Assembly (NCBI RefSeq): GCF_024223415.1
Contig: NZ_CP100500.1
DNA length: 64,000 bases
Source: Escherichia coli
GTDB lineage: Bacteria > Pseudomonadota > Gammaproteobacteria > Enterobacterales > Enterobacteriaceae
Strand: one strand, 5' to 3'
Shown piece after piece: positions 1,300 through 13,126 of this stretch. The position numbers were made by a program, and so were the translations under genes. The notes below the pieces were generated by a model. It did not search any database and was not told the origin of the DNA. It was given only the letters and a program-made list of their open reading frames with translations. Every line of letters starts with the position of its first letter. Within the stretch, counting starts at the first letter, position 1.

Positions 1300-1992
1300 C
1301 TAGTGATAACCACGCGCGGTCATAAAATCCGTAATCGCTTTTTCTGCATCAACCAGCACCTGTTCCAGTGGCTGATTGGCATCGATATCAACCAGTTGTG
1401 CACCACCAAAGGTTAACTGTGGCGTTATGGCAATCTTCCTCGCCAGCGATTCCCGTTTATGGTCGGGTTTACGCATGCAGGCAACTTCAAGGTCAACATT
1501 GAGTTTGATGACCAGATCAGGCTTATGGCTCGCCATCCAGTGAAACGCTTTACGTTCCTGGCTTGCCAGCCATGAGACAAAACGACCACCTTCAACGTTA
1601 GGTGGGAACACCGTACCATCGTAAGCGCCAGGAATTTGGTCCTGAGGATAACGGTCGGTTAGAACAATTAACCCGCGACGACGACAGGCAAGCATATGAC
1701 GAAAGCGCAGTAAGCGACGGGCGACAAACGCTGTAATTACCAGCGCCGGAACTGGTCCTGGCAATTTTTTTGCTGTTTTCACCTGATTTCGTTCAATTGT
1801 TTTATGTAAGGATTTTCCCATCAACGGTAATTTTGTCACTGCACGACCGACATTTCCGGCTTGTTTTCCTAAATGAACTCTTTCGGCAGCACCATATTTT
1901 TCGACAACGGTAATGAGATGTTCACACACCGTTGACTTGCCTGAACCATCGCTACCAATAACGGCAATTAATGGAGGTGTTATTGACTGCAT
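1300..1992 (-). CDS. yghT: P-loop NTPase / putative kinase, YghT-like
   Basis: 230 aa; N-terminal Walker [14 protein letters not shown]; paralogous to the two following genes; position matches recalled K-12 pitB-yghT order. Confidence 0.7.
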
Positions 1993-2165
1993 GAATATAT
2001 CCTTAAATTTAAATATCCATCCAAAATATTTATTTGGTTAATATGTTTTTATGAAAGCGTAATTCAGGTCAATGTCACAATTAACCATTGTCACAATAAG
2101 GTTGAACGGATATTCTGAGCACGGACCACGTAATATTCAATACATTATTTACTGCCGGGTTTTTC

Positions 2166-2879
2166 GTGAATCAACGTAATATGTCAATAATTAATTCCAC
2201 GCCAGTGCGTGTTATTGCCATTGTAGGATGTGATGGTTCAGGTAAATCGACCCTCACGGCAAGCCTGGTAAATGAACTGGCAGCAAGAATGCCAACAGAA
2301 CGCATTTATCTCGGGCAATCGTCCGGGCGAATTGGCGAATGGATTTCACAGCTCCCTGTTATTGGCGCACCTTTTGGGCGTTATCTGCGAAGTAAAGCGG
2401 CACATGTGCACGAAAAGCCCTCAACACCGCCTGGCAATATTACTGCACTGGTTATCTATCTGCTTTCCTGCTGGCGGGCGTACAAGTTTCGCAAAATGTT
2501 GTGTAGAAGCCAGCAAGGCCATCTGCTCATCACCGACCGCTACCCGCAGGTTGAAGTGCCGGGTTTTCGCTTTGATGGCCCGCAATTGGCAAAAACCACG
2601 GGCGGTAACGGTTGGATAAAAATGTTAAGGCAGCGCGAGTTGAAGCTGTACCAATGGATGGCGTCTTATTTACCCGTATTGTTGATTCGTCTTGGCATTG
2701 ATGAGCAAACCGCGTTTGCGCGTAAACCTGACCACCAACTGGCAGCGTTACAGGAAAAAATCGCCGTTACGCCGCAACTGACATTCAATGGCGCAAAGAT
2801 CCTTGAACTGGATGGTCGGCAACCAGCCGATGAAATTCTGCAAGCGTCACTACGCGCAATTCACGCCGCGCTTTCCTGA
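2166..2879 (+). CDS. yghS: P-loop NTPase / putative kinase, YghS-like
   Basis: 237 aa; Walker A IAIVGCDGSGKST; shared DRYPQ and RKPDH motifs with neighbours. Confidence 0.7.
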   Translation: MNQRNMSIINSTPVRVIAIVGCDGSGKSTLTASLVNELAARMPTERIYLGQSSGRIGEWISQLPVIGAPFGRYLRSKAAHVHEKPSTPPGNITALVIYLLSCWRAYKFRKMLCRSQQGHLLITDRYPQVEVPGFRFDGPQLAKTTGGNGWIKMLRQRELKLYQWMASYLPVLLIRLGIDEQTAFARKPDHQLAALQEKIAVTPQLTFNGAKILELDGRQPADEILQASLRAIHAALS

Positions 2880-2910
2880 TCACCAAAATGGATAGGGGAT
2901 GATTTAACGA

Positions 2911-3669
2911 ATGGATGCACTACAAACACAAACTGTTAATAGTACAACCGCGCCGCAGCCCAACTACATTCCGGGGCTGATTGCGGTGGTCGGGTGTGAT
3001 GGCACCGGTAAATCCACACTGACCACCGACCTGGTGAAATCGCTGCAACAACACTGGCAAACCGAGCGGCGCTATCTGGGGCTGCTCTCCGGCGAAGACG
3101 GCGACAAAATCAAACGATTGCCGTTGGTTGGCGTCTGGCTGGAACGGCGACTGGCGGCCAAATCCTCGAAAACCCAAAGCATGAAAACCAAATCTCCGGC
3201 GCTATGGGCGGCGGTGATTATGTACTGCTTCTCGCTGCGAAGAATGGCGAATCTACGCAAGGTTCAGCGACTGGCGCAAAGTGGCGTTCTGGTGGTCAGC
3301 GATCGCTTCCCGCAGGCTGAAATTTCGGGCTTTTATTATGACGGACCGGGGATTGGCGTCGAACGTGCGACCGGGAAAATCAGCATGTTTCTGGCGCAGC
3401 GCGAACGGCGTTTATACCAAAAAATGGCGCAATATCGCCCGGAATTAATTATTCGCCTGGGCATTGATATTGAGACTGCCATCTCCCGCAAGCCTGACCA
3501 TGACTATGCCGAGCTGCAGGACAAAATCGGCGTCATGTCGACGATTGGTTATAACGGCACAAAAATTCTTGAGATTGATTCCAGAGCGCCCTACAGCGAA
3601 GTGCTGGAACAGGCACAGAAGGCGGTTTCTCTGGTTGCCATCGTTTCTGACCGCCGAAGTTTAACTTAA
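2911..3669 (+). CDS. yghR: P-loop NTPase / putative kinase, YghR-like
   Basis: 252 aa; Walker A IAVVGCDGTGKST; same conserved blocks (DRFPQ, RKPDH) as yghS/yghT. Confidence 0.7.
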   Translation: MDALQTQTVNSTTAPQPNYIPGLIAVVGCDGTGKSTLTTDLVKSLQQHWQTERRYLGLLSGEDGDKIKRLPLVGVWLERRLAAKSSKTQSMKTKSPALWAAVIMYCFSLRRMANLRKVQRLAQSGVLVVSDRFPQAEISGFYYDGPGIGVERATGKISMFLAQRERRLYQKMAQYRPELIIRLGIDIETAISRKPDHDYAELQDKIGVMSTIGYNGTKILEIDSRAPYSEVLEQAQKAVSLVAIVSDRRSLT

Positions 3670-3714: not shown

Positions 3715-5064
3715 TTGGCGGGTTTTAACATCAAACATTGGTTTGCAGATGGCGCGTTTCGCACCATTATTCGCAATAGCGCCTGGTTAGGCTCCAGTAA
3801 TGTCGTGAGCGCCTTGCTGGGGCTGTTGGCGCTCTCGTGTGCCGGTAAAGGGATGACGCCCGCCATGTTTGGCGTACTGGTGATTGTGCAATCGTACGCC
3901 AAGTCGATCAGCGATTTTATTAAGTTTCAGACATGGCAGCTGGTGGTTCAGTACGGAACGCCAGCCTTGACCAACAATAATCCGCAGCAATTTCGCAATG
4001 TCGTCTCATTTTCCTTCTCGCTGGATATCGTCAGCGGCGCGGTGGCGATTGTCGGCGGCATTGCCTTACTGCCATTCCTTTCCCATTCATTAGGTCTGGA
4101 TGACCAAAGCTTTTGGCTGGCGGCGCTGTATTGCACGCTCATTCCTTCAATGGCTTCCTCCACGCCGACCGGCATTCTGCGTGCGGTAGATCGCTTTGAT
4201 TTGATTGCTGTACAGCAGGCGACGAAACCTTTTCTGCGCGCAGCGGGGAGCGTCGCAGCCTGGTATTTTGACTTTGGTTTTGCGGGTTTTGTTATTGCCT
4301 GGTACGTGTCGAATCTGGTTGGCGGCACCATGTACTGGTGGTTTGCCGCGCGCGAATTACGCCGCAGAAATATCCATAACGCCTTCAAATTGAATCTGTT
4401 TGAGTCTGCCCGACACATTAAAGGCGCGTGGAGTTTTGTCTGGTCAACCAACATTGCCCACTCCATCTGGTCGGCGCGTAACTCGTGCAGCACAGTGTTG
4501 GTGGGGATCGTGTTAGGACCCGCTGCCGCCGGGTTATTTAAAATCGCCATGACATTCTTCGACGCCGCCGGAACGCCAGCGGGTTTGCTGGGTAAAAGTT
4601 TTTACCCAGAGGTGATGCGTTTAGATCCGCGCACCACCAGACCGTGGTTGTTAGGTGTGAAGTCCGGTTTACTGGCGGGCGGAATCGGTATTCTGGTGGC
4701 GCTCGCGGTGTTGATCGTCGGCAAGCCGCTCATTTCGCTGGTGTTTGGCGTTAAGTATCTCGAAGCGTATGACCTGATTCAGGTGATGCTGGGCGCAATT
4801 GTGATTTCGATGCTGGGTTTCCCGCAGGAGTCATTGCTATTGATGGCGGGAAAACAGCGCGCTTTTCTCGTGGCGCAAACCATCGCCTCAATCGGCTACA
4901 TCGTATTGCTGTTCATGTTCTGTCATCTGTTTGGTGTGCTGGGAGCAGCGTTTGCTTACTTCGGTGGGCAATGTCTGGACGTGGCGCTCTCGTTAATTCC
5001 AACCTTAAAGGCATTTTTTCAGCGCCATTCCTTGCTTTATAACGCAGCCGGAGAGAAATCCTGA
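3715..5064 (+). CDS. yghQ: Polytopic inner-membrane protein, MOP-type flippase-like (YghQ-like); start codon uncertain
   Basis: Long hydrophobic ORF with multiple predicted TM helices; ORF track start is a TTG so the true start may lie downstream; stop overlaps next gene start (ATGA at 5062-5067). Confidence 0.55.
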   Translation: MAGFNIKHWFADGAFRTIIRNSAWLGSSNVVSALLGLLALSCAGKGMTPAMFGVLVIVQSYAKSISDFIKFQTWQLVVQYGTPALTNNNPQQFRNVVSFSFSLDIVSGAVAIVGGIALLPFLSHSLGLDDQSFWLAALYCTLIPSMASSTPTGILRAVDRFDLIAVQQATKPFLRAAGSVAAWYFDFGFAGFVIAWYVSNLVGGTMYWWFAARELRRRNIHNAFKLNLFESARHIKGAWSFVWSTNIAHSIWSARNSCSTVLVGIVLGPAAAGLFKIAMTFFDAAGTPAGLLGKSFYPEVMRLDPRTTRPWLLGVKSGLLAGGIGILVALAVLIVGKPLISLVFGVKYLEAYDLIQVMLGAIVISMLGFPQESLLLMAGKQRAFLVAQTIASIGYIVLLFMFCHLFGVLGAAFAYFGGQCLDVALSLIPTLKAFFQRHSLLYNAAGEKS

Positions 5065-5888
5065 TGATGAGAAAATATTTCCCGCTTGAGGCGAGCGGGC
5101 GTCTATTTGTTGCGATTGAAGAAGATGATGTCGTTGATGCACAGGTTAGTTTGCCGCCGACTATTGCACTAAGTTGTACCACCGAAATCATTCATGATAA
5201 TTACGCGTTATGCCTGCAATTCTGGCTCAATGGCGTTAATCGTCAGGAATTACTGCGTTTAGTTCGCAAACAAGCCAAAGGCGATGAGCTGACTGCTGAT
5301 GAGCGCAAACAATTTAAATACATGCGAGCGCGCTACAAGCACCTGCGTTTTGCGCAACGGCTGTATTTAAAGAAGCATCAGGCCGGATTTTTATTCGGCA
5401 AAACGACCGTTTTTCTGGGACGTTTTCAGGACGGGTTTCGTAACGGTAAGAAAAATATTGTGTCGTATTACGGCAACCTGTTACGGATTTATTTAAGCTC
5501 TCCGGTCTGGTCGTTGGTGAACTATTCATTACGCCATAGCCAGTTAGAAAGCGTAAGCGGTTTTATTGCCTATCGGCAAAAGCAAATGCATGCCCTGAAA
5601 GAGATAATTGCCAAACCGCGACTAACCGGCAGGGAATTTCATGATGTGCGAAAAATCATCAGCCAGCAGGTTTCTTATTACGACACCTTAAGATCGCTTG
5701 ATCCTGAAAATAAAGAGGCGTTACAGATTTCCCGTTTCCTCGCCGCCATTAATGGCCTGATGGGGGATAAACACGACGACATGGTGGCGGATGATATGGA
5801 AAACCGCCAGTCGTATGATGCACCGGTGGCGCAGGATAGCGATATTCGCCAGCGCTTAGAGCTGCTGATTTCGCGTTTTCCGCTATAA
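5064..5888 (+). CDS. Hypothetical protein (274 aa), translationally coupled to upstream flippase-like gene
   Basis: Intact ORF with ATG overlapping the upstream stop; no recognisable motif. Confidence 0.4.
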   Translation: MMRKYFPLEASGRLFVAIEEDDVVDAQVSLPPTIALSCTTEIIHDNYALCLQFWLNGVNRQELLRLVRKQAKGDELTADERKQFKYMRARYKHLRFAQRLYLKKHQAGFLFGKTTVFLGRFQDGFRNGKKNIVSYYGNLLRIYLSSPVWSLVNYSLRHSQLESVSGFIAYRQKQMHALKEIIAKPRLTGREFHDVRKIISQQVSYYDTLRSLDPENKEALQISRFLAAINGLMGDKHDDMVADDMENRQSYDAPVAQDSDIRQRLELLISRFPL

Positions 5889-5896
5889 CCGGAGCA

Positions 5897-6460
5897 ATGA
5901 TGTCATCTCGTTTGATTATTGCGCTGATTATCATGCTCTTAGCCCCGGGTGTGCAGGCACACAATTTCGTCACTGGCAAAACGGTTACCCCTGTTTATAT
6001 TCAGGAAGGCGGCGAGCTGCTTCTGAATAGCGACGACGAAATTCACTACCAAAAGTGGAACAGCACACAATTGGCGGGAAAAGTCCGCATTATCCAGTAT
6101 ATCGCCGGGCGTAAGTCGGCGAAGAAAAAGAACTCACTGTTAATTAAAGCGGTTGAAGCGGCAAACTTTCCGCAGGATCGTTTTCAGCCCACCACCATTG
6201 TGAACACCGATGATGCCATCTTTGGTACTGGCTATTTTGTTGTTGGCAAAATCGAAAAAAATAAACGCCGCTATCCGTGGGCGCAATTCGTTATCGACGG
6301 CAATGGACAGGGACGCGTTGCCTGGCGCTTGCCGGAGCAGAGTTCAACCATTCTGGTGCTGAATAAAGCCGGGCAAATTCAGTGGGCAAAGGACGGCAGC
6401 CTGACGCCGGTAGAGGTAGATCATGTCATTGCGCTGGCGCAGAAACTGATCAATGAATAA
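5897..6460 (+). CDS. Secreted/periplasmic protein with N-terminal signal peptide (possibly YtfJ-like)
   Basis: N-terminus MMSSRLIIALIIMLLAPGVQA is a typical Sec signal peptide; 187 aa soluble remainder. Confidence 0.45.
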   Translation: MMSSRLIIALIIMLLAPGVQAHNFVTGKTVTPVYIQEGGELLLNSDDEIHYQKWNSTQLAGKVRIIQYIAGRKSAKKKNSLLIKAVEAANFPQDRFQPTTIVNTDDAIFGTGYFVVGKIEKNKRRYPWAQFVIDGNGQGRVAWRLPEQSSTILVLNKAGQIQWAKDGSLTPVEVDHVIALAQKLINE

Positions 6461-6490
6461 AAAACTCAAAGGATTGAGGGCGTTAGTGAG

Positions 6491-7561
6491 ATGAAGCTGG
6501 TTGAACACTACATCATGCGTGGTACGCGCCGTCTGGTGCTGATTATCGTCGGTTTTCTGATCTTTATTTTCGCCAGCTACTCCGCACAGCGTTATCTGAC
6601 CGAAGCGGCAAATGGGACATTAGCACTTGATGTTGTGCTAGATATCGTTTTCTACAAAGTGCTGATTGCACTGGAGATGTTGTTACCTGTTGGACTGTAT
6701 GTGTCAGTTGGCGTGACGCTAGGGCAGATGTATACCGACTCGGAAATTACCGCTATCTCTGCGGCGGGGGGCAGTCCGGGACGCTTGTACAAAGCCGTTC
6801 TTTATCTGGCGATACCGCTAAGTATTTTTGTCACCCTTCTGTCGATGTATGGTCGTCCGTGGGCTTATGCGCAGATTTATCAACTGGAGCAGCAGTCGCA
6901 GTCGGAGCTGGATGTTCGCCAGTTGCGGGCAAAGAAATTTAACACTAACGATAACGGACGAATGATCCTTTCGCAGACGGTTGATCAGGATAATAATCGC
7001 CTGACTGACGCGCTGATTTATACTTCTACTGCCAATCGAACCCGCATTTTCCGCGCCCGTTCGGTTGATGTGGTTGACCCATCACCCGAGAAACCGACTG
7101 TTATGTTGCACAACGGCACTGCCTATCTTCTCGATCATCAGGGTCGTGACGACAACGAACAGATCTACCGTAATCTGCAATTACATCTGAATCCGCTGGA
7201 TCAAAGCCCTAACGTCAAACGCAAAGCGAAATCGGTCACGGAGCTGGCGCGCTCCGTCTTTCCAGCCGATCATGCCGAACTGCAATGGCGACAAAGCCGT
7301 GGCCTGACAGCATTGTTGATGGCGCTGCTGGCCATTTCATTAAGTCGGGTAAAACCGCGGCAGGGGCGATTTTCAACATTATTGCCACTGACGTTGCTGT
7401 TTATTGCCATTTTTTATGGCGGCGACGTCTGCCGTACGCTGGTGGCTAACGGCGCGATTCCCCTCATTCCTGGTTTGTGGTTAGTACCCGGACTCATGCT
7501 AATGGGCCTGCTGATGCTGGTCGCACGCGACTTCTCTTTGCTGCAGAAATTTTCCCGATGA
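6491..7561 (+). CDS. LptF/LptG (YjgP/YjgQ) family permease
   Basis: 356 aa; N-terminal region and TM topology typical of LptF/LptG family; paired with a second paralog immediately downstream. Confidence 0.6.
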   Translation: MKLVEHYIMRGTRRLVLIIVGFLIFIFASYSAQRYLTEAANGTLALDVVLDIVFYKVLIALEMLLPVGLYVSVGVTLGQMYTDSEITAISAAGGSPGRLYKAVLYLAIPLSIFVTLLSMYGRPWAYAQIYQLEQQSQSELDVRQLRAKKFNTNDNGRMILSQTVDQDNNRLTDALIYTSTANRTRIFRARSVDVVDPSPEKPTVMLHNGTAYLLDHQGRDDNEQIYRNLQLHLNPLDQSPNVKRKAKSVTELARSVFPADHAELQWRQSRGLTALLMALLAISLSRVKPRQGRFSTLLPLTLLFIAIFYGGDVCRTLVANGAIPLIPGLWLVPGLMLMGLLMLVARDFSLLQKFSR

Positions 7562-8637
7562 ATGTTTTCAGTCGCTATTTAATCCGTCATCTCTTTCTCG
7601 GTTTTGCCGCCGCCGCAGGGCTATTGCTGCCGCTTTTTACCACCTTCAACCTGATTAACGAACTGGATGATGTCAGCCCGGGCGGTTATCGCTGGACTCA
7701 GGCGGTGCTGGTGGTGCTAATGACCTTACCGCGCACACTGGTCGAACTTTCGCCGTTTATCGCCTTATTGGGAGGGATTGTTGGCCTGGGGCAGTTATCG
7801 AAAAACAGTGAGCTTACCGCCATTCGCAGCATGGGGTTTTCTATCTTCCGTATTGCACTGGTGGCGCTGGTTGCCGGGATATTGTGGACTGTTTCGTTAG
7901 GCGCGATAGATGAGTGGGTAGCGTCGCCGTTGCAGCAACAGGCGCTGCAAATCAAATCGACCGCCACTGCGTTGGGGGAGGACGATGATATTACCGGCAA
8001 TATGCTTTGGGCCAGGCGCGGTAATGAATTTGTAACGGTGAAATCGCTGAACGAGCAGGGCCAGCCGGTGGGCGTGGAGATTTTTCATTATCGTGACGAT
8101 CTCTCGCTCGAATCCTACATTTATGCACGCAGTGCCACCATTGAAGACGACAAAACGTGGGTCCTGCATGGTGTGAATCATAAAAAATGGCTGAATGGCA
8201 AAGAAACGCTGGAAACATTAGATAATCTTGCCTGGCAATCGGCCTTCACCAGTATGGATCTTGAAGAGCTATCGATGCCGGGGAATACTTTTTCTGTCCG
8301 TCAGCTTAATCATTACATCCATTATTTGCAGGAAACCGGGCAACCCAGCAGCGAATACCGCCTTGCACTGTGGGAAAAACTGGGGCAACCCATCCTGACC
8401 CTGGCGATGATTTTGCTGGCTGTGCCGTTTACCTTTAGTGCCCCGCGCTCGCCAGGGATGGGTAGCCGTCTCGCTGTAGGCGTCATCGTTGGCTTACTCA
8501 CCTGGATCAGCTATCAAATCATGGTCAATCTGGGATTGCTATTTGCGTTAAGCGCACCTGTTACCGCGCTCGGTTTACCGATAGCGTTTGTGCTGGTGGC
8601 GTTGAGCCTGGTGTATTGGTATGACAGACAACATTAA
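7558..8637 (+). CDS. LptF/LptG (YjgP/YjgQ) family permease, second paralog
   Basis: ATG at 7558 overlaps the upstream stop (ATGA); N-terminus MNVFSRYLIRHLFLGF typical of the family; ORF-track start at 7477 is probably an upstream extension. Confidence 0.6.
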   Translation: MNVFSRYLIRHLFLGFAAAAGLLLPLFTTFNLINELDDVSPGGYRWTQAVLVVLMTLPRTLVELSPFIALLGGIVGLGQLSKNSELTAIRSMGFSIFRIALVALVAGILWTVSLGAIDEWVASPLQQQALQIKSTATALGEDDDITGNMLWARRGNEFVTVKSLNEQGQPVGVEIFHYRDDLSLESYIYARSATIEDDKTWVLHGVNHKKWLNGKETLETLDNLAWQSAFTSMDLEELSMPGNTFSVRQLNHYIHYLQETGQPSSEYRLALWEKLGQPILTLAMILLAVPFTFSAPRSPGMGSRLAVGVIVGLLTWISYQIMVNLGLLFALSAPVTALGLPIAFVLVALSLVYWYDRQH

Positions 8638-8671
8638 ACCCGCCGTGGCGCAACACCACGGCGGGCTCACA

Positions 8672-9844
8672 TTACTGCTTCAGAGTAGCAAATGCCTGAA
8701 TGATGGCATCGATTTGCTCACGACTGTGGGCAGCGTTTACGCTACAGCGCAGCAGCGTGATGCCTGCAGGCGCGGCAGGTGGCAGGATAAGATTCACATA
8801 AACGCCCAGCGAAATAAGCTCGCGCCAGATGCGTAAACCTTCCTCTTTCGAACCGATTATTACCGGCACTACCGGACTAATATGTGAACTTAACTCATAA
8901 CCCAGTTTTTGCAGACCGTCATACAGATGGTTGGCGTTATCCATCAGCTTTTGCCGCAGCTCTGGTTGTGTGGCAATGGTTCTTAACGACGAGCGCACGG
9001 TCGCAATGCAGGACGGAGAAGGAGAGGCGGTAAAAATATACGGGCGGCTGCCGTAGCGCAGCACTTCCATCGCTTCCGAACCGACAGCAAAACCGCCAAT
9101 CGAGGCCAGACTTTTACTGAAGGTGCCAACGATAATATCCACATCATCTTCAACGCCGACAGCTTCAGCCAGTCCGCGCCCCGTTGCGCCTAACACGCCA
9201 AACGAATGCGCTTCATCGACAATCAAATAACCACCGAGACGACGTTTGATATCAACAATTTCCGCCAGCGGCGCAACGTCACCGAGCATGCTGTAGATAC
9301 CCTCAACGATGATAATCGCCTCTTTCGCCCGTTCACCGAGGCGAACCATGCGCCGTTCCAGATCTTTAGCATCGTTATGGCGGAAACGAATAATTTCCGC
9401 GCCACCGAGAGAACAGGCGTCATAAATACTGGCGTGGCTGTCAGCATCCAGTAACACCACGGCGTTATGGTCGGCAAGTGCGCTGATGACGCCTAAATTA
9501 GCGGTATAACCGGTTGAAAAAACGATAGCGGTAGGGCGATTGAAAAACTCAGCAATCTCTTTCTCTAACGCCAGATGCGGCGCATAACTGCCGTTTGCCA
9601 TACGAGAACCGGTGGTGCCGGTGCCTTGGGCCGCTAACGCTGCCTGACCTTCGGCGATGGCATCATGATTGAAGGTTAATCCGAGATAATTATTGGTCCC
9701 GGCCAGAATCACTTTTTTATTGCCGATCCGGCCTTCGGTGGCGGAATACACTTCATCAATACAGGTGCCAAACGGTGTTAACCCGTTGTCACTAAATTGC
9801 AGTCGCTCGCCAGCAAGGCGCGCATATTTATCGTATAGCCCCAT
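8672..9844 (-). CDS. PLP-dependent alpha-oxoamine synthase, serine palmitoyltransferase-like
   Basis: 390 aa; PLP-lysine block GTFSKSLASIGGF, which resembles the SPT signature more than BioF/Kbl; start overlaps ACP stop. Confidence 0.6.
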   Translation of the reverse strand: MGLYDKYARLAGERLQFSDNGLTPFGTCIDEVYSATEGRIGNKKVILAGTNNYLGLTFNHDAIAEGQAALAAQGTGTTGSRMANGSYAPHLALEKEIAEFFNRPTAIVFSTGYTANLGVISALADHNAVVLLDADSHASIYDACSLGGAEIIRFRHNDAKDLERRMVRLGERAKEAIIIVEGIYSMLGDVAPLAEIVDIKRRLGGYLIVDEAHSFGVLGATGRGLAEAVGVEDDVDIIVGTFSKSLASIGGFAVGSEAMEVLRYGSRPYIFTASPSPSCIATVRSSLRTIATQPELRQKLMDNANHLYDGLQKLGYELSSHISPVVPVIIGSKEEGLRIWRELISLGVYVNLILPPAAPAGITLLRCSVNAAHSREQIDAIIQAFATLKQ

Positions 9845-10092
9845 TATTTATTCTCCAGCCATGGAAGTAGAGTTTCCATTAATTGCGCAGGGGTTTTGAC
9901 ATCCAGCAGAATATTAATAGGAATGGAAATATCGAATCTGTCTTCCAGCATCATTAAGAGATCCATCACTTTGATCGACTCCAGGCCAAGATCGTTGACG
10001 AGATCGCTGTCGGGCTTAATTTCCACACCGTTTTCGACCAAATCCTGTAAACAGGAAAGGATGTAATCCATTACTATTTCACGATTTACCAT
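9844..10092 (-). CDS. Acyl carrier protein
   Basis: 82 aa; phosphopantetheine attachment-like motif DLGLESIKVMDL. Confidence 0.6.
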   Translation of the reverse strand: MVNREIVMDYILSCLQDLVENGVEIKPDSDLVNDLGLESIKVMDLLMMLEDRFDISIPINILLDVKTPAQLMETLLPWLENK

Positions 10093-10123
10093 AGAAACGT
10101 TAACACACCTTTAAACAAGACAA

Positions 10124-11038
10124 TCAAAATAGCCCGTTGCGTAATGCGTGTTCCAGGCTAATCCCGGGAAACCAATTAATATCTTCAGAAATACGGTTAT
10201 TACTTGCCGACCAGTCGGCGTGGGTTAATTCACGAATTTTCGAGCGGGTCAGCATAGGTTCTTTACCTGCCAGGCGACTCAACGCGGTACTGATATCCGC
10301 AAGGCAGGTGAGTACCGGCAGAGGAATGCCAACCATCCGCACAGAACCACAACGGGCGTCGGCGGCAAGCTGTCGTACGCGTTGCCAGTCATAGCCGCCA
10401 GCGACGCCATCGCATAATTCATAGGTTTGCGTCTGTACAGTTTCGGCGCTTAACCACTGACCCACTGCTTGCGCAAAATCGGTGACGTGCAGGAAAGAGA
10501 GTTGTGTATCTGGCGCACCAAGTCGTGGCAGCAGGCCGCGCAGCATCCAATAAAACAGCGGTTTTAACTCTTTATCGCCGGGACCATACACGGCTGTCGG
10601 GCGAAAAACGCCCAGCGTAATTTTGTCAGCCATTGCAGTCAGCCGTTGTTCGGCGACGTATTTGGAATTTGCGTACCAGGAGAGTTCGGGATGGCGCGCC
10701 GCCAGCGAAGAGATAAACAGAAAACGTTGGCAAAAGCCGCTCTCTTTTGCTGCTTGCATCAGGCGCAGGCTGCCGTCAACGTTACAGTGGGTAAAAATCT
10801 CTTCTTTGTGTCCGCGCACTTGCCCGGCGCAATGGACCACCGCGCTGGCTCCGGCAACCAGTTCGCTAAGCGAATGTGTATCTTCCAGCGAACCGCGCAC
10901 CCAAGTAAGATTATCATTGACGTGAGCGCGGGCAGTACGCGTCAATGCGCGAACGTGAAAGCCGCGGGCGAGCAGGTTATCGATAATATATTTACCGATA
11001 AACCCGGTAGCGCCCGTCACCGCGACAGTTTGATTCAT
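10124..11038 (-). CDS. NAD(P)-dependent epimerase/dehydratase-family reductase
   Basis: Rossmann motif VAVTGATGFIGKYI directly after internal Met; ATG at 11038 overlaps stop of upstream ligase gene (ATGA). ORF-track N-terminal extension to 11248 considered spurious. Confidence 0.6.
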   Translation of the reverse strand: MNQTVAVTGATGFIGKYIIDNLLARGFHVRALTRTARAHVNDNLTWVRGSLEDTHSLSELVAGASAVVHCAGQVRGHKEEIFTHCNVDGSLRLMQAAKESGFCQRFLFISSLAARHPELSWYANSKYVAEQRLTAMADKITLGVFRPTAVYGPGDKELKPLFYWMLRGLLPRLGAPDTQLSFLHVTDFAQAVGQWLSAETVQTQTYELCDGVAGGYDWQRVRQLAADARCGSVRMVGIPLPVLTCLADISTALSRLAGKEPMLTRSKIRELTHADWSASNNRISEDINWFPGISLEHALRNGLF

Positions 11039-12783
11039 GCCAGGGATTCCTGCACATGAAGACTGGCAGCATAAGCCTTCTGATAACGTTTTTTCGCTTC
11101 CGCACGGGCAGGCTTGCCGGAGGACGTTCGGGGAATACTGTGGGGCGGCAACAGATCGATAGCCGCGGTCACGCCAAATTCGCTTTGGATCCGTGCTGCC
11201 AGCGCGTGGATAAGCTGCCCGCGACGTTCTTCGTCGCTGATCCGACACTGGATCTGCAAAATGATTTTTTCCTGGGCGGTAACAAAAGCAATCGCATCGC
11301 CAGAATGAATTTCCGGTTCCTGTTCCGCTATATATTCAATATCCTGCGGCCAGATATTACGGCCACGAATAATAATCAGATCTTTAATGCGTCCGGTGAC
11401 ATACAGATAACCGTCCAGCAGATAACCGAGGTCGCCGGTGTCTAACCAGCCCGTCGCGGCAATCTCGTCTTGCGAAGCCTGGTCGCCAAAGTAACCGCTC
11501 ATCAGGCTAGGGCCGGAGATGCAAATATGGCCTACCACACGTTCCGCGACAGGTATACCTGCTTCATTGCGGATTTCAATGCCATGTTCCGGCAACGCTT
11601 TACCGCAGTTGACGAAAGTCGATACGGCGCGTGTCTCTGCACCCGGCGCGACGGCTTTACCCTGATATTCGAGGATGTCGCGATCCACTTCGTTAACCAC
11701 AACCCCGGAGGCTTCATCAGAGAAGCTGACAGCCAGCGCATTTTCTGCCAGTCCGTAGCACGGCATGAAAGTTTTATTGTCAAAGTTAACCTGACGGAAA
11801 CATTCAGCGAATTGATGGAGTTGTTCTGCGGAGATGGGTTCTGCACCAATACCAGCGACGCGCCAGCAGGAAAGATCCAGTTCAGCGAGATCTTTTTCAT
11901 TCACGCGGCGCTGGCACAATTCATAGCCAAACGGCGGCGCAACGGAAACGGTGCCGCGATTTTTACTGATCAATTTAAGCCATTGCAGAGGACGCATGGC
12001 AAAATCCTGAGTGCGCAAATAATCTACTGAAAGTTGCGTGGCGACGGGGGTCAGGAGAAAGCCGACCAGTCCCATATCATGGTAGAAAGGCAGCCAGGAG
12101 ACGCAGCGGTCGCCAGGGCGTAATTTAATGCCGTCGTGGCTTATAGCACGTAGATTAGCCATCACTTCGCGATGGGTGATAATGACGCCACGGGGAAAAC
12201 GGGTGCTGCCGGAGGTGTACTGGAGGTAGGCGATATCGTCCGGAACTGGGCGCTGGAGCGCAACATCAGCTTCCGGTAATGCCTTAAACCAGGCATGGCT
12301 TAATACATGCAATTCGGGGTTGTTATGCGTGGCGGCATTGACCAGCGGCAACCACTCATCACCAGTGATAATGGCAGCGGGCTGGCAACTTGCCAGTAAA
12401 CCCTGCAGTTTGGCGCTCCAGGAATCCCGCTGACCGACGCCCATTGGAATCGCCAACGGGACGGCGACTAAGCCGGCATACTGGCAGGAAAAAAAAGCCT
12501 CTACGAACCCGCTACTGGTTTCGGCAATCAGCGCCACGCGATCGCCTTTTTTCAGGTTTAGCGATAACAACCGCTTCGCACCAGCTTCGGCACGCACTTT
12601 TAACGTCTGATATTCCAGTTGATCTTCAAGTTGGCAACGTCTGTCATAAAAATTCATTCCAGCGCTACTCAGAGCGGCGTAGTCCAAAGCATCAACCAGC
12701 GTTGGAAAATCGGCATAGCGCATAGGTAGGGAATGCGTAAAGATTTTATTAGACATATACACCACGAAAAAATTGGATATCAA
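11035..12783 (-). CDS. Fatty acyl-AMP ligase / acyl-CoA (or acyl-ACP) synthetase, ANL adenylating superfamily
   Basis: 582 aa; adenylate-forming enzyme blocks (YLQYTSGSTRFPRGV, GYGLAE-like, C-terminal conserved lysine region); first gene of a 4-gene minus-strand operon. Confidence 0.65.
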   Translation of the reverse strand: MISNFFVVYMSNKIFTHSLPMRYADFPTLVDALDYAALSSAGMNFYDRRCQLEDQLEYQTLKVRAEAGAKRLLSLNLKKGDRVALIAETSSGFVEAFFSCQYAGLVAVPLAIPMGVGQRDSWSAKLQGLLASCQPAAIITGDEWLPLVNAATHNNPELHVLSHAWFKALPEADVALQRPVPDDIAYLQYTSGSTRFPRGVIITHREVMANLRAISHDGIKLRPGDRCVSWLPFYHDMGLVGFLLTPVATQLSVDYLRTQDFAMRPLQWLKLISKNRGTVSVAPPFGYELCQRRVNEKDLAELDLSCWRVAGIGAEPISAEQLHQFAECFRQVNFDNKTFMPCYGLAENALAVSFSDEASGVVVNEVDRDILEYQGKAVAPGAETRAVSTFVNCGKALPEHGIEIRNEAGIPVAERVVGHICISGPSLMSGYFGDQASQDEIAATGWLDTGDLGYLLDGYLYVTGRIKDLIIIRGRNIWPQDIEYIAEQEPEIHSGDAIAFVTAQEKIILQIQCRISDEERRGQLIHALAARIQSEFGVTAAIDLLPPHSIPRTSSGKPARAEAKKRYQKAYAASLHVQESLA

Positions 12784-13126
12784 AAATAAAATGACAATAA
12801 TGCGGTGGATTATATAGGCATAAAAGATAAATGAGATAGTATTTTCATCGGTGTGAAAATGAACATTGATTTAAATAATGAGTTTAAGTTTTTTGTTTTT
12901 ATTGTGAATGATATTTAATTTATGAATATATTAAGAAGAAGCCTTGTCCGGTCGCCTTAAATCGACAAAAGGCATTGTGGCGCTTCTGCGTAGTCGCTGA
13001 CCCTATCGTAATCATTAATAAATACTATTTATTCGTCGTTTGTATTCATTGGGTTGATTATTAAGATGCCGTTCGTTGCTGTTGCAACCTGTTTTTCACC
13101 GTTAATTATTTGTTACCCACAGAACT

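Follow-up and report, generated by a model that had tools for sequence, protein, structure and literature searches.

YghT, YghS and YghR of Escherichia coli form a P-loop protein family of the thymidylate kinase superfamily that is co-inherited with a sphingolipid locus

Among the systems described so far, archaeal PPK3 is the nearest precedent for the locus presented here. The polyphosphate kinase PPK3 of Sulfolobus acidocaldarius is a heteromer of two proteins annotated as 'thymidylate kinases', Saci_2019 (cPPK3) and Saci_2020 (rPPK3); its operon encodes a CHAD protein, PPX and SixA in addition to the two paralogs, and the arginine of its DRx motif, which clamps the terminal phosphates of both donor and acceptor, is replaced in the regulatory paralog (PMC12995831). 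In Caulobacter crescentus, the sphingolipid head group is made by CpgA-D, where the ceramide kinase CpgB (CCNA_01218) features an LCB5/DAG-kinase domain, and the anionic phosphosphingolipid of this organism has a role in the outer membrane, can replace lipopolysaccharide (LPS) and is the target of polymyxin. Sphingolipid transport in Caulobacter requires the permeases LptF2/G2, which bind LptB, and the same study draws the locus of E. coli UTI89 while giving yghR, yghS and yghT no role (bioRxiv 10.64898/2026.04.12.717747). Here we analyze a stretch of 64,000 nucleotides from E. coli (RefSeq assembly GCF_024223415.1, contig NZ_CP100500.1; the window in what follows), and within it yghT, yghS and yghR, three neighboring genes at positions 1300-3669 that encode small P-loop proteins beside a ceramide locus. 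We conclude that this triad is a separate family inside the deoxythymidylate kinase (dTMPK) superfamily, and probably one of phosphotransferases with a lipid-linked acceptor.

A previous, sequence-only reading of the window had described the three genes as tandem paralogs on alternating strands. The open reading frames are real, encoding proteins of 230, 237 and 252 amino acids (aa) that correspond to RefSeq yghT, yghS and a yghR homolog and to b2986, b2985 and b2984 of strain K-12; their strand order, on the other hand, is minus, plus, plus, with yghT divergent from the yghS-yghR pair. The proteins are true paralogs whose similarity lies far past chance, as BLASTP aligns them over nearly their full lengths with 45% identity for S and R (E 2e-63), 37% for T and S (E 1e-53) and 34% for T and R (E 4e-47). 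All three feature a Walker A motif of the form G[SC]DG[ST]GKST, with GCDGSGKST and GCDGTGKST among its variants, a DR[YF]PQ block (DRYPQ in two paralogs and DRFPQ in the third) and an RKPDH motif. These shared motifs had been noted before and are indeed common to the three proteins and to the family at large: a profile search of the whole library returned 2183 representative clusters at E<1e-3, 143 of them at E<1e-30, in which the three motifs are widely retained. RKPDH had been placed at the C terminus, but is found about three quarters along the chain, where a profile alignment with the Plasmodium falciparum thymidylate kinase (TMPK) puts the dTMP-kinase LID. The family further resolves into three orthogroups, T, S and R, with mean identities of 57-59% within and 34-42% between them; because these are distinct, the triplication must be older than the lineages sampled, and every copy has been retained. 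Across 224 sequences, conservation in every orthogroup reaches at least 90% for the Walker A lysine (Lys34), the P-loop aspartate, the Asp-Arg pair of the DRx motif (including the DRx arginine, Arg132) and the Arg-Lys of the LID; the LID Arg-Lys-x-x-His, Arg111, Asp144, Glu165 and Lys205 are likewise kept by all three. With their catalytic motifs thus intact, T, S and R all look catalytically competent as judged from sequence.

The nucleotide-kinase-like fold suggested earlier is borne out by both profile and structure comparisons. An AlphaFold2 (AF2) model of YghR (pLDDT 90.2; predicted template modeling score, pTM, 0.86) has as its top Foldseek matches dTMP kinases and a deoxyadenosine kinase (E ~1e-6, TMt 0.63-0.72, 15-19% identity), the deoxynucleoside kinases being represented among the fold matches by 8puu, and a 51-member family profile run against the Protein Data Bank (PDB) picks up dTMP kinases (E 5e-11) in an alignment that spans P-loop, DRx strand and LID. 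The P-loop, the DRx motif and the LID basic residue are thus all present within a dTMPK-like fold; moreover, in the profile alignment the P-loop aspartate and Arg111 fall on the TMPK P-loop and 'ANR' segment, positions that we take to be dTMP contacts in dTMPK structures. Standard family models, in turn, give only sub-threshold thymidylate-kinase matches and generic Walker A matches in Pfam and NCBIfam: the triad proteins score 19.7, 16.2 and 26.8 bits against PF02223 (gathering score 27) and 24.4, 22.1 and 32.2 bits against TIGR00041 (cut-off 83.25). The RefSeq name 'dTMP kinase' for yghS and yghT is accordingly an over-annotation, because these scores lie far under the family cut-offs; for yghR itself, the names in use are hypothetical, ATP-binding and nucleoside/nucleotide kinase family protein. 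A basic insert of 40-50 residues, with a net charge of +4 to +9 and lower model confidence, separates the P-loop helix of these proteins from the DRx strand and occupies the place of the nucleoside monophosphate (NMP)-binding region of dTMPKs. Together with the RKPDH, DR[YF]PQ and YLGxxSGxxG motifs and a long PQxExPGxxDGP loop, it sets apart a separate family of P-loop phosphotransferases within the dTMPK superfamily, whose members are not dTMP kinases. T, S and R are soluble, with isoelectric points (pI) of 9.6-9.9 and no membrane anchor.

Several other identities were considered and rejected. The adenylylsulfate kinases named in the sequence-only reading are not represented, with no APS_kinase or CysC model among the matches at E<=1 in Pfam and E<=0.1 in NCBIfam, and assignments as APS kinase, ABC ATPase or MobB-type protein come down to Walker A matches, all under cut-off. 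The match to ABC_tran, as expected for an LptB-like ATPase, covers P-loop residues only (15.6 and 17.8 bits; cut-off 25), and the PADLOC matches that could indicate anti-phage defense are at P-loop level only, all at 19 bits or less. Homology to Caulobacter CpgB was likewise discarded, CpgB being an LCB5/DAG-kinase protein where the triad gives P-loop and TMPK-type matches only.

The second line of evidence is genetic linkage. The lipid cluster next to the triad is the published ceramide locus of E. coli B (spt, acpR, epi, aasR and yghO) together with LptF/G paralogs; in E. coli BL21 the ceramide genes are yghO (02850), aasR (ECD_02851), epi (02852), acpR (02853) and spt (02854), a set shared with rhodobacterial sphingolipid synthesis, and AcpR, AasR and SPT of E. 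coli B have been biochemically characterized (PMC9386255). To map the co-occurrence we used the family alignment as query against one genome per species (GTDB), retained the 80 best loci (40 enterobacterial and 40 other) with 10-kb flanks, and mapped all proteins of the E. coli locus onto them; we call a locus well-flanked if it has 8 kb or more on each side. The unit of leftward T followed by rightward S and R is invariant wherever the contig permits, with S always directly upstream of R. In Enterobacterales, spt and at least three ceramide genes lie within 10 kb of the triad in all 32 well-flanked loci, in genera that include Serratia, Sodalis, Erwinia, Pantoea, Hafnia, Citrobacter, Shimwellia, Pluralibacter, Rosenbergiella, Tatumella and Rahnella, and in at least four gene orders, such as that of Serratia, where the triad sits between spt and yghQ. 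In other orders, the same linkage to spt and at least three ceramide genes is seen in 9 of 15 well-flanked loci, among them Dyella, Rhodanobacter, Luteibacter, Carnimonas, Methylotenera, Sulfuritalea, Gallionellaceae and several gammaproteobacterial metagenome-assembled genomes (MAGs), and in Sphingobium and Sphingopyxis the triad is accompanied by homologs of yghQ and of the 274-aa protein discussed below, with spt more than 10 kb away. The adjacency noticed in the window hence becomes inclusion within the lipid cluster in other genera, and phylogenetic co-occurrence, the absence of which the sequence-only reading had named as speaking against a lipid role, is strong.

Third, the triad has constant partners, among them a 274-aa protein that RefSeq leaves hypothetical (positions 5064-5888). 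We show that it adopts a CHAD fold of two four-helix bundles. Its sequence does not match PF05235 in E. coli, but 7 of 39 family members do, and one of these, from locus L067, passes the gathering threshold with 26.2 bits against 25.6; a profile of the family found no sequence in the PDB, and a relationship to the NTP_transf_5-like N-terminal domain described below was rejected (hhalign probability 0.7%). Together with the triad it makes four basic proteins (pI 9.4-9.9). Arg88, Lys92, His93, Arg95, His193, Arg196 and His237 are among its invariant positions. CHAD domains bind polyphosphate specifically (bioRxiv 10.1101/567040). The CHAD-fold protein is encoded in 38 of the 40 enterobacterial and 16 of the 40 other loci, a YghQ-type flippase in 39 and 23, respectively, and a YtfJ-family protein in 38 of the enterobacterial ones.

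In the window, these genes are arranged as follows:
End at 1251, plus strand: pitB (RefSeq), a phosphate transporter gene, convergent to yghT both here and in K-12.
1261-1289: terminator-like hairpin between the convergent pitB and yghT, the left boundary of the locus.
1300-1992, minus strand: yghT, dTMPK-superfamily P-loop kinase-like paralog T, 230 aa (open reading frame, RefSeq, motifs; orthogroup kept in other genera).
1993-2165: AT-rich, low-GC divergent spacer of 173 bp between yghT and yghS, presumed regulatory region.
2166-2879, plus strand: yghS, paralog S, 237 aa, GTG start (open reading frame, RefSeq, motifs, BLASTP).
2911-3669, plus strand: yghR, paralog R, 252 aa (open reading frame, RefSeq homolog, motifs, AF2 model).
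3715-5064, plus strand: yghQ, full-length MOP/Wzx-type (Polysacc_synt) flippase, 449 aa (Pfam PF01943/PF13440).
5064-5888, plus strand: CHAD-type-fold protein, 274 aa, RefSeq hypothetical; its start overlaps the yghQ stop.
5897-6460, plus strand: YtfJ-family protein with an N-terminal hydrophobic, signal-like segment (PF09695, 199 bits; TIGR01626, 211 bits).
6491-7561, plus strand: LptF paralog, LptF2-type (Pfam LptF_LptG, 183 bits).
7558-8637, plus strand: LptG paralog, LptG2-type (Pfam, 236 bits).
8635-8669: terminator-like hairpin with a 16-bp stem between the convergent lptG2 and spt.
8672-9844, minus strand: spt, serine palmitoyltransferase (600 bits with the SPT equivalog of NCBIfam, cut-off 500).
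9844-10092, minus strand: acpR, specialized acyl carrier protein (RefSeq; PMC9386255).
10124-11038, minus strand: epi, ceramide-pathway reductase from the NAD-dependent epimerase/dehydratase family (ECD_02852 homolog).
11035-12723, minus strand: aasR, acyl-ACP synthetase, RefSeq fatty acyl-AMP ligase (RefSeq; PMC9386255).
13127-14269, plus strand: yghO, N-acyltransferase (aca) of dihydroceramide synthesis (PMC9386255, Fig. 9 legend); glcC is next.

From yghS to lptG2, seven genes follow one another on one strand with gaps of 0-45 bp or overlaps, and the unit from the triad to lptG2 is flanked by the two terminator-like hairpins at 1261-1289 and 8635-8669. The permeases at 6491-8637 are by context of the LptF2/G2 type and not the essential LPS exporter genes; the RefSeq name 'LPS export ABC transporter permease LptF/LptG' is probably misleading, because the context is that of sphingolipid-locus paralogs. 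The first 12 kb of the window are 100% identical to the corresponding DNA of E. coli strains SCU-316 and NCTC10444. In the yghT/yghS spacer, a promoter scan found one sigma-70-like match (2088-2116, plus strand) that does not exceed the shuffled expectation and was given no weight, and the K-12 spacer carries an FlhDC peak in genomic SELEX (gSELEX; PMC9962212). Neither was any weight for a phosphate-related function given to the adjacency of pitB and yghT.

Further genes accompany the triad outside E. coli. PAP2 phosphatases are encoded in 16 of the 40 non-enterobacterial loci. In many MAGs of beta- and gammaproteobacteria, the PAP2 gene comes directly downstream of yghT, and the two form an apparent operon in nine loci (L056, L069, L070, L071, L077, L082, L083, L085 and L086); in three others (L060, L064 and L066), two T copies stand on either side of PAP2, for a total of four kinase paralogs. 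In locus L094, a His_Phos_1 phosphatase gene overlaps that of the flippase. A second DgkA-type gene (DAGK_prokar), which the E. coli locus does not have, adjoins the yghO homolog in 18 of the 40 enterobacterial loci, in Serratia, Sodalis, Erwinia, Pantoea, Rosenbergiella and others (for example, L002 1419-1781 and L004 10801-11160). E. coli DgkA phosphorylates ceramide in vitro, and the locus-linked paralog is a candidate ceramide kinase.

Gene fusions and duplications are also found. An S-R fusion (P0121, five contigs) shares its locus with a CHAD-like gene, T, an LpxO-like hydroxylase, the flippase, spt, acp and epi; in L095, the Asp_Arg_Hydrox (LpxO-like) hydroxylase gene directly follows the fusion (6472-7242), which suggests that this organism hydroxylates the ceramide acyl chain. 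A T-R-type fusion (P0122) adjoins a CHAD-like gene, a flippase and His_Phos_1. Two tandem CHAD-like genes are present in Luteibacter (L052 17297-18976; L057 17297-19068), and in a gammaproteobacterial MAG (L080 5504-8675) two copies, on opposite strands, surround the T gene. In Betaproteobacteria, yghR is followed by a gene for a secreted DUF2147 protein (L054-L056, L059, L061, L065, L067, L071, L072, L077 and L082), which may be the alternative, within one system, to the YtfJ-family protein found further downstream in Enterobacterales as a periplasmic component. It should be added that L042 (NZ_SZPQ01000026.1, labeled Martelella alba) and L025 (labeled a Pseudomonas sp. MAG) encode proteins with 68-70% identity to E. 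coli YghR, and that L042 has the enterobacterial gene order, unexpected in an alphaproteobacterium; contamination, mislabeling or recent transfer may be the cause.

Of 5426 complete E. coli genomes, 4604 contain the triad (at least 80% coverage) and 4066 contain the segment that runs from the 274-aa gene to aasR, so that about three quarters have the whole locus. In K-12 MG1655 (L093, NC_000913.3 3129043-3132408), an IS5 element (insH9) abuts a yghQ truncated to 355 of 449 aa, and everything from the yghQ 3' end through aasR (~4780-13100 in the window) is missing while yghT, yghS and yghR are retained; with these genes lost, ceramide synthesis is not possible in K-12. In at least one E. coli genome (NZ_CP155555.1 876549-876720), the first 172 bases of the query, corresponding to the yghT 3' end, are the only part that matches, and the region is annotated 'thymidylate kinase | gspL', which suggests a larger deletion that fused the yghT remnant to the type II secretion cluster. 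Repeated yghQ variants arose in chlorhexidine-adapted K-12, and yghQ deletion raises the minimum inhibitory concentration (MIC) 2-fold (PMC8170033), a link qualified by the fact that K-12 yghQ is already truncated.

More distant relatives are found in a different setting. Proteins of ~500 aa combine an N-terminal Pol-beta-like nucleotidyltransferase-type domain (sub-threshold NTP_transf_5) with a C-terminal T-like kinase domain (L006 7223-9482, L088 4351-6599, L091 10001-12264, L090 959-3690 and P0221) and sit in Wzx/Wzy polysaccharide loci beside a flippase; in P0221, a Polysacc_synt_3 flippase, the nucleotidyltransferase-like domain and the kinase-like domain are joined in a single protein of 978 aa, and yet another relative of the ~500-aa type is fused behind a GT4 glycosyltransferase. 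Because these relatives belong to polysaccharide loci, the link between the kinase domain and a Wzx-type flippase is older than that with sphingolipids. Each ~500-aa fusion is followed by a different P-loop protein of 241-250 aa; those of 243-250 aa were rejected as family members (14.5-18 bits, no match for L090_241, P-loop GLPGxGKTT).

How, then, might the triad serve the sphingolipid pathway? The enterobacterial loci encode no glycosyltransferase, CDP-alcohol transferase or nucleotidyltransferase, which leaves the kinases as the sole candidate head-group enzymes if the ceramide is decorated at all. The reading that we tentatively prefer, although we hold it to be more likely wrong than right, is that the triad phosphorylates an already phosphorylated sphingolipid head group before the lipid is flipped and exported by the Lpt-type machinery. 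From the conserved partners (CHAD-fold protein, Wzx-type flippase, PAP2 or His phosphatases) and the dTMPK-type DRx arginine, phosphate-on-phosphate chemistry is indicated no less than the simple phosphorylation of a hydroxyl on a head group or precursor. Ceramide made by Spt, AcpR, AasR, Epi and YghO would first be phosphorylated, with the DgkA paralog as the candidate enzyme in many Enterobacterales. T, S and R, probably as a hetero-oligomer or in sequence, would then move a phosphate from ATP onto a phosphate-bearing acceptor in the manner of dTMPK, PPK2 and PPK3, the likeliest such acceptor being ceramide 1-phosphate from a DgkA-type or other kinase, to yield an anionic head group of pyro- or oligophosphate type. 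The CHAD-fold protein would bind the phosphate chain, YghQ would flip the phosphorylated sphingolipid, periplasmic PAP2 enzymes, where present, would trim or transfer phosphate, and LptF2/G2 would extract the lipid so that it can be delivered to the outer membrane. The data directly show the family and its fold, the conservation of motifs, the linkage of the genes and the partner's CHAD fold; which acceptor is used, what product results, whether hetero-oligomers form and how the steps are ordered are deductions. Taken to its full extent, the proposal would be of a new, strongly anionic class of outer-membrane sphingolipids in E. coli and many other Proteobacteria, ceramide-anchored pyro- or oligophosphates built by a YghT/S/R hetero-oligomer with its CHAD partner, flipped by YghQ, trimmed by PAP2 enzymes and exported by LptF2/G2; this complete scheme we regard as unlikely.

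A number of observations weigh against such a role. About 540 E. coli genomes, K-12 included, keep the triad without the ceramide genes. Around the polysaccharide-locus relatives, ceramide genes were not detected (tblastn, L006 and L007 only), nor was a CHAD-like match found among the unannotated neighbors tested; relatives of this kind show that the family has no intrinsic specificity for sphingolipids, and the ancestral substrate need not have been one. Pfam gives no match for the CHAD-like protein of E. coli itself. The triad is no closer to the PPK3 homolog 2plr/5h70 than to canonical dTMP kinases, keeps the DRx arginine in all three paralogs, unlike the PPK3 regulatory subunit, and is accompanied by no PPX in these loci. 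A nucleotide-like acceptor would fit the retained P-loop aspartate and Arg111, and Asp144, universally conserved in a family-specific loop, could act as the base for a hydroxyl acceptor. The searchable literature has no biochemical or lipidomic data on the triad proteins or on the E. coli sphingolipid head group, and we know of no description of a lipid-linked oligophosphate of the proposed kind.

The strongest competing explanation is that T, S and R are lipid hydroxyl kinases, each acting on a different hydroxyl of a long-chain base, ceramide or precursor to give ceramide mono- or bisphosphates, as non-homologous analogs of CpgB; in essence this is what the sequence-only reading proposed. 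It shares the co-occurrence with ceramide genes, gains from an E. coli locus that has neither an LCB5/DAG-kinase-type ceramide kinase nor the DgkA paralog found elsewhere, and can point both to Asp144 and Glu165, universally conserved in family-specific segments, as a possible catalytic base and to hydroxyl-phosphorylating deoxynucleoside kinases (8puu) among the fold matches. It leaves unexplained, however, the obligatory CHAD-fold partner and the presence in many loci of a DgkA-type lipid kinase on top of three kinases; the proteins are moreover soluble with no membrane anchor, and the DRx arginine and overall similarity favor dTMPK-type phosphate acceptors. On balance we hold such hydroxyl kinases to be doubtful.

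The CHAD partner is what recommends a second alternative, in which the triad and the CHAD-like protein form a PPK3-like polyphosphate kinase or a polyphosphate-dependent nucleotide kinase, with the polyphosphate, or ATP regenerated from it, serving the locus only indirectly, or with the polyphosphate itself exported. PPK3 sets the precedent of dTMPK paralogs with CHAD (and phosphatases), CHAD domains are polyphosphate-specific, the triad proteins are basic, and a His_Phos_1 protein (SixA/PhoE class) is encoded beside the module in L094. The strict link with a lipid flippase and ceramide genes would remain without explanation, though; these loci have no PPX; PPK3 organisms mostly do without PPK1/PPK2, whereas E. 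coli has PPK1; and the triad is not especially close to 2plr in sequence or structure and has lost the DRx arginine in no paralog. A polyphosphate kinase is for these reasons decidedly unlikely.

The family assignment itself raises a third alternative, namely nucleotide or nucleotide-sugar kinases that supply or recycle an activated head-group donor. That the best sequence and fold matches are dTMP kinases, that the P-loop aspartate and Arg111 are conserved at dTMPK-aligned positions, and that distant relatives are fused to a nucleotidyltransferase-like domain would all fit. Conversely, the scores fall far under the TIGR00041 and Pfam cut-offs, the NMP-binding region has given way to the 40-50-residue basic insert, enterobacterial loci lack a nucleotidyltransferase or transferase to use the donor, three paralogs would be superfluous, and E. 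coli has a separate, essential tmk, all of which renders donor synthesis very unlikely. Finally, non-kinase NTPase subunits or regulators that energize or gate the YghQ flippase or the LptF2/G2 exporter, as the constantly adjacent flippase, its fusion to nucleotidyltransferase-like and kinase-like domains in the 978-aa P0221 and a sphingolipid locus with no LptB paralog might suggest, are highly improbable given the conserved kinase-type DRx and LID motifs, the P-loop-only match to ABC_tran (16-18 bits against 25) that separates the triad from ABC ATPases, the binding of Caulobacter LptF2/G2 to the housekeeping LptB, and the occurrence of the triad in loci with no LptF2/G2 within 10 kb.

Bacterial sphingolipids have only recently been recognized as widespread. 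Already known were the triad as uncharacterized 'putative ATP-binding proteins', mentioned incidentally in K-12 screens that make up the searchable literature on yghR, yghS and yghT (one of them with no virulence phenotype in silkworm), and the neighboring ceramide genes, which are published. That the triad is conserved and inherited together with the sphingolipid locus in several orders of Proteobacteria, that its constant partner has a CHAD fold and that the arrangement parallels PPK3 were not found in the searchable literature, which likewise says nothing of what head group the E. coli-type lipid has or how it crosses the inner membrane. The present analysis places YghQ, an unannotated protein of CHAD fold and three long-orphan y-genes of E. 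coli in a missing part of the pathway. They make up a module whose conservation extends from Enterobacterales to Xanthomonadales, Betaproteobacteria and Sphingomonadales, and a propagating 'dTMP kinase' mis-annotation is corrected. The IS5-associated deletion in K-12 may account for the triad having stayed uncharacterized.

Set against known systems, the triad shares with canonical Tmk the fold, a P-loop with aspartate, the DRx motif and a basic LID residue at the aligned position, but has only 15-19% identity to it, features the extra basic segment of 40-50 residues and the PQxExPGxxDGP loop, and resides in a context of lipid synthesis and export rather than nucleotide metabolism. In lipid A synthesis, LpxK is a P-loop kinase that acts on a lipid in the cytoplasm, and the periplasmic PAP2 enzyme LpxT uses undecaprenyl-PP to make lipid A 1-diphosphate, with Lpt export to follow; the proposed chemistry would resemble theirs in coupling a P-loop kinase acting on a lipid and PAP2-mediated phosphate transfer, which makes a diphosphate, to Lpt export, whereas a relationship to LpxK turned up in no search and the PAP2 genes are those of other taxa, not of the E. 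coli window. Similarly, the CHAD-fold protein parallels the polyphosphate-binding CHAD proteins (6qv5, 3e0s, PptA 6rn5 and the C-terminal domain of E. coli YgiF), yet the context of the E. coli member is lipid and not polyphosphate granules.

The comparison with Caulobacter is one of shared pathway and different head-group enzymes. Both sphingolipid loci hold spt, acpR, aasR, a reductase, an N-acyltransferase and LptF2/G2, and the Caulobacter product is an anionic phosphosphingolipid. CpgB, however, is not a P-loop kinase, and no CpgA-D enzyme types are encoded in the E. coli locus, which has no CDP-alcohol transferase or cytidylyltransferase and instead features the triad, the CHAD-fold protein and a Wzx-type flippase.

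With PPK3, in turn, the triad shares the co-encoding of at least two dTMPK-like paralogs with P-loop, DRx motif and LID, here found together in all 80 loci where the contig allows, and a CHAD protein in the same operon. Three paralogs take the place of two, all retain the DRx arginine, PPX and SixA are not present in the window locus, and the genes are embedded among those for ceramide synthesis, flipping and Lpt-type export, with motifs and a basic insert of their own. The Sulfolobus tokodaii cPPK3 homolog 2plr is matched by the family profile at the P-loop only (E 2e-4, against 5e-11 for canonical TMPKs), and 2plr/5h70 come in at Foldseek rank 28 among the YghR fold matches. Were the oligophosphate-lipid proposal true, YghT, YghS and YghR would represent a lipid-directed counterpart of the polyphosphate kinase PPK3.

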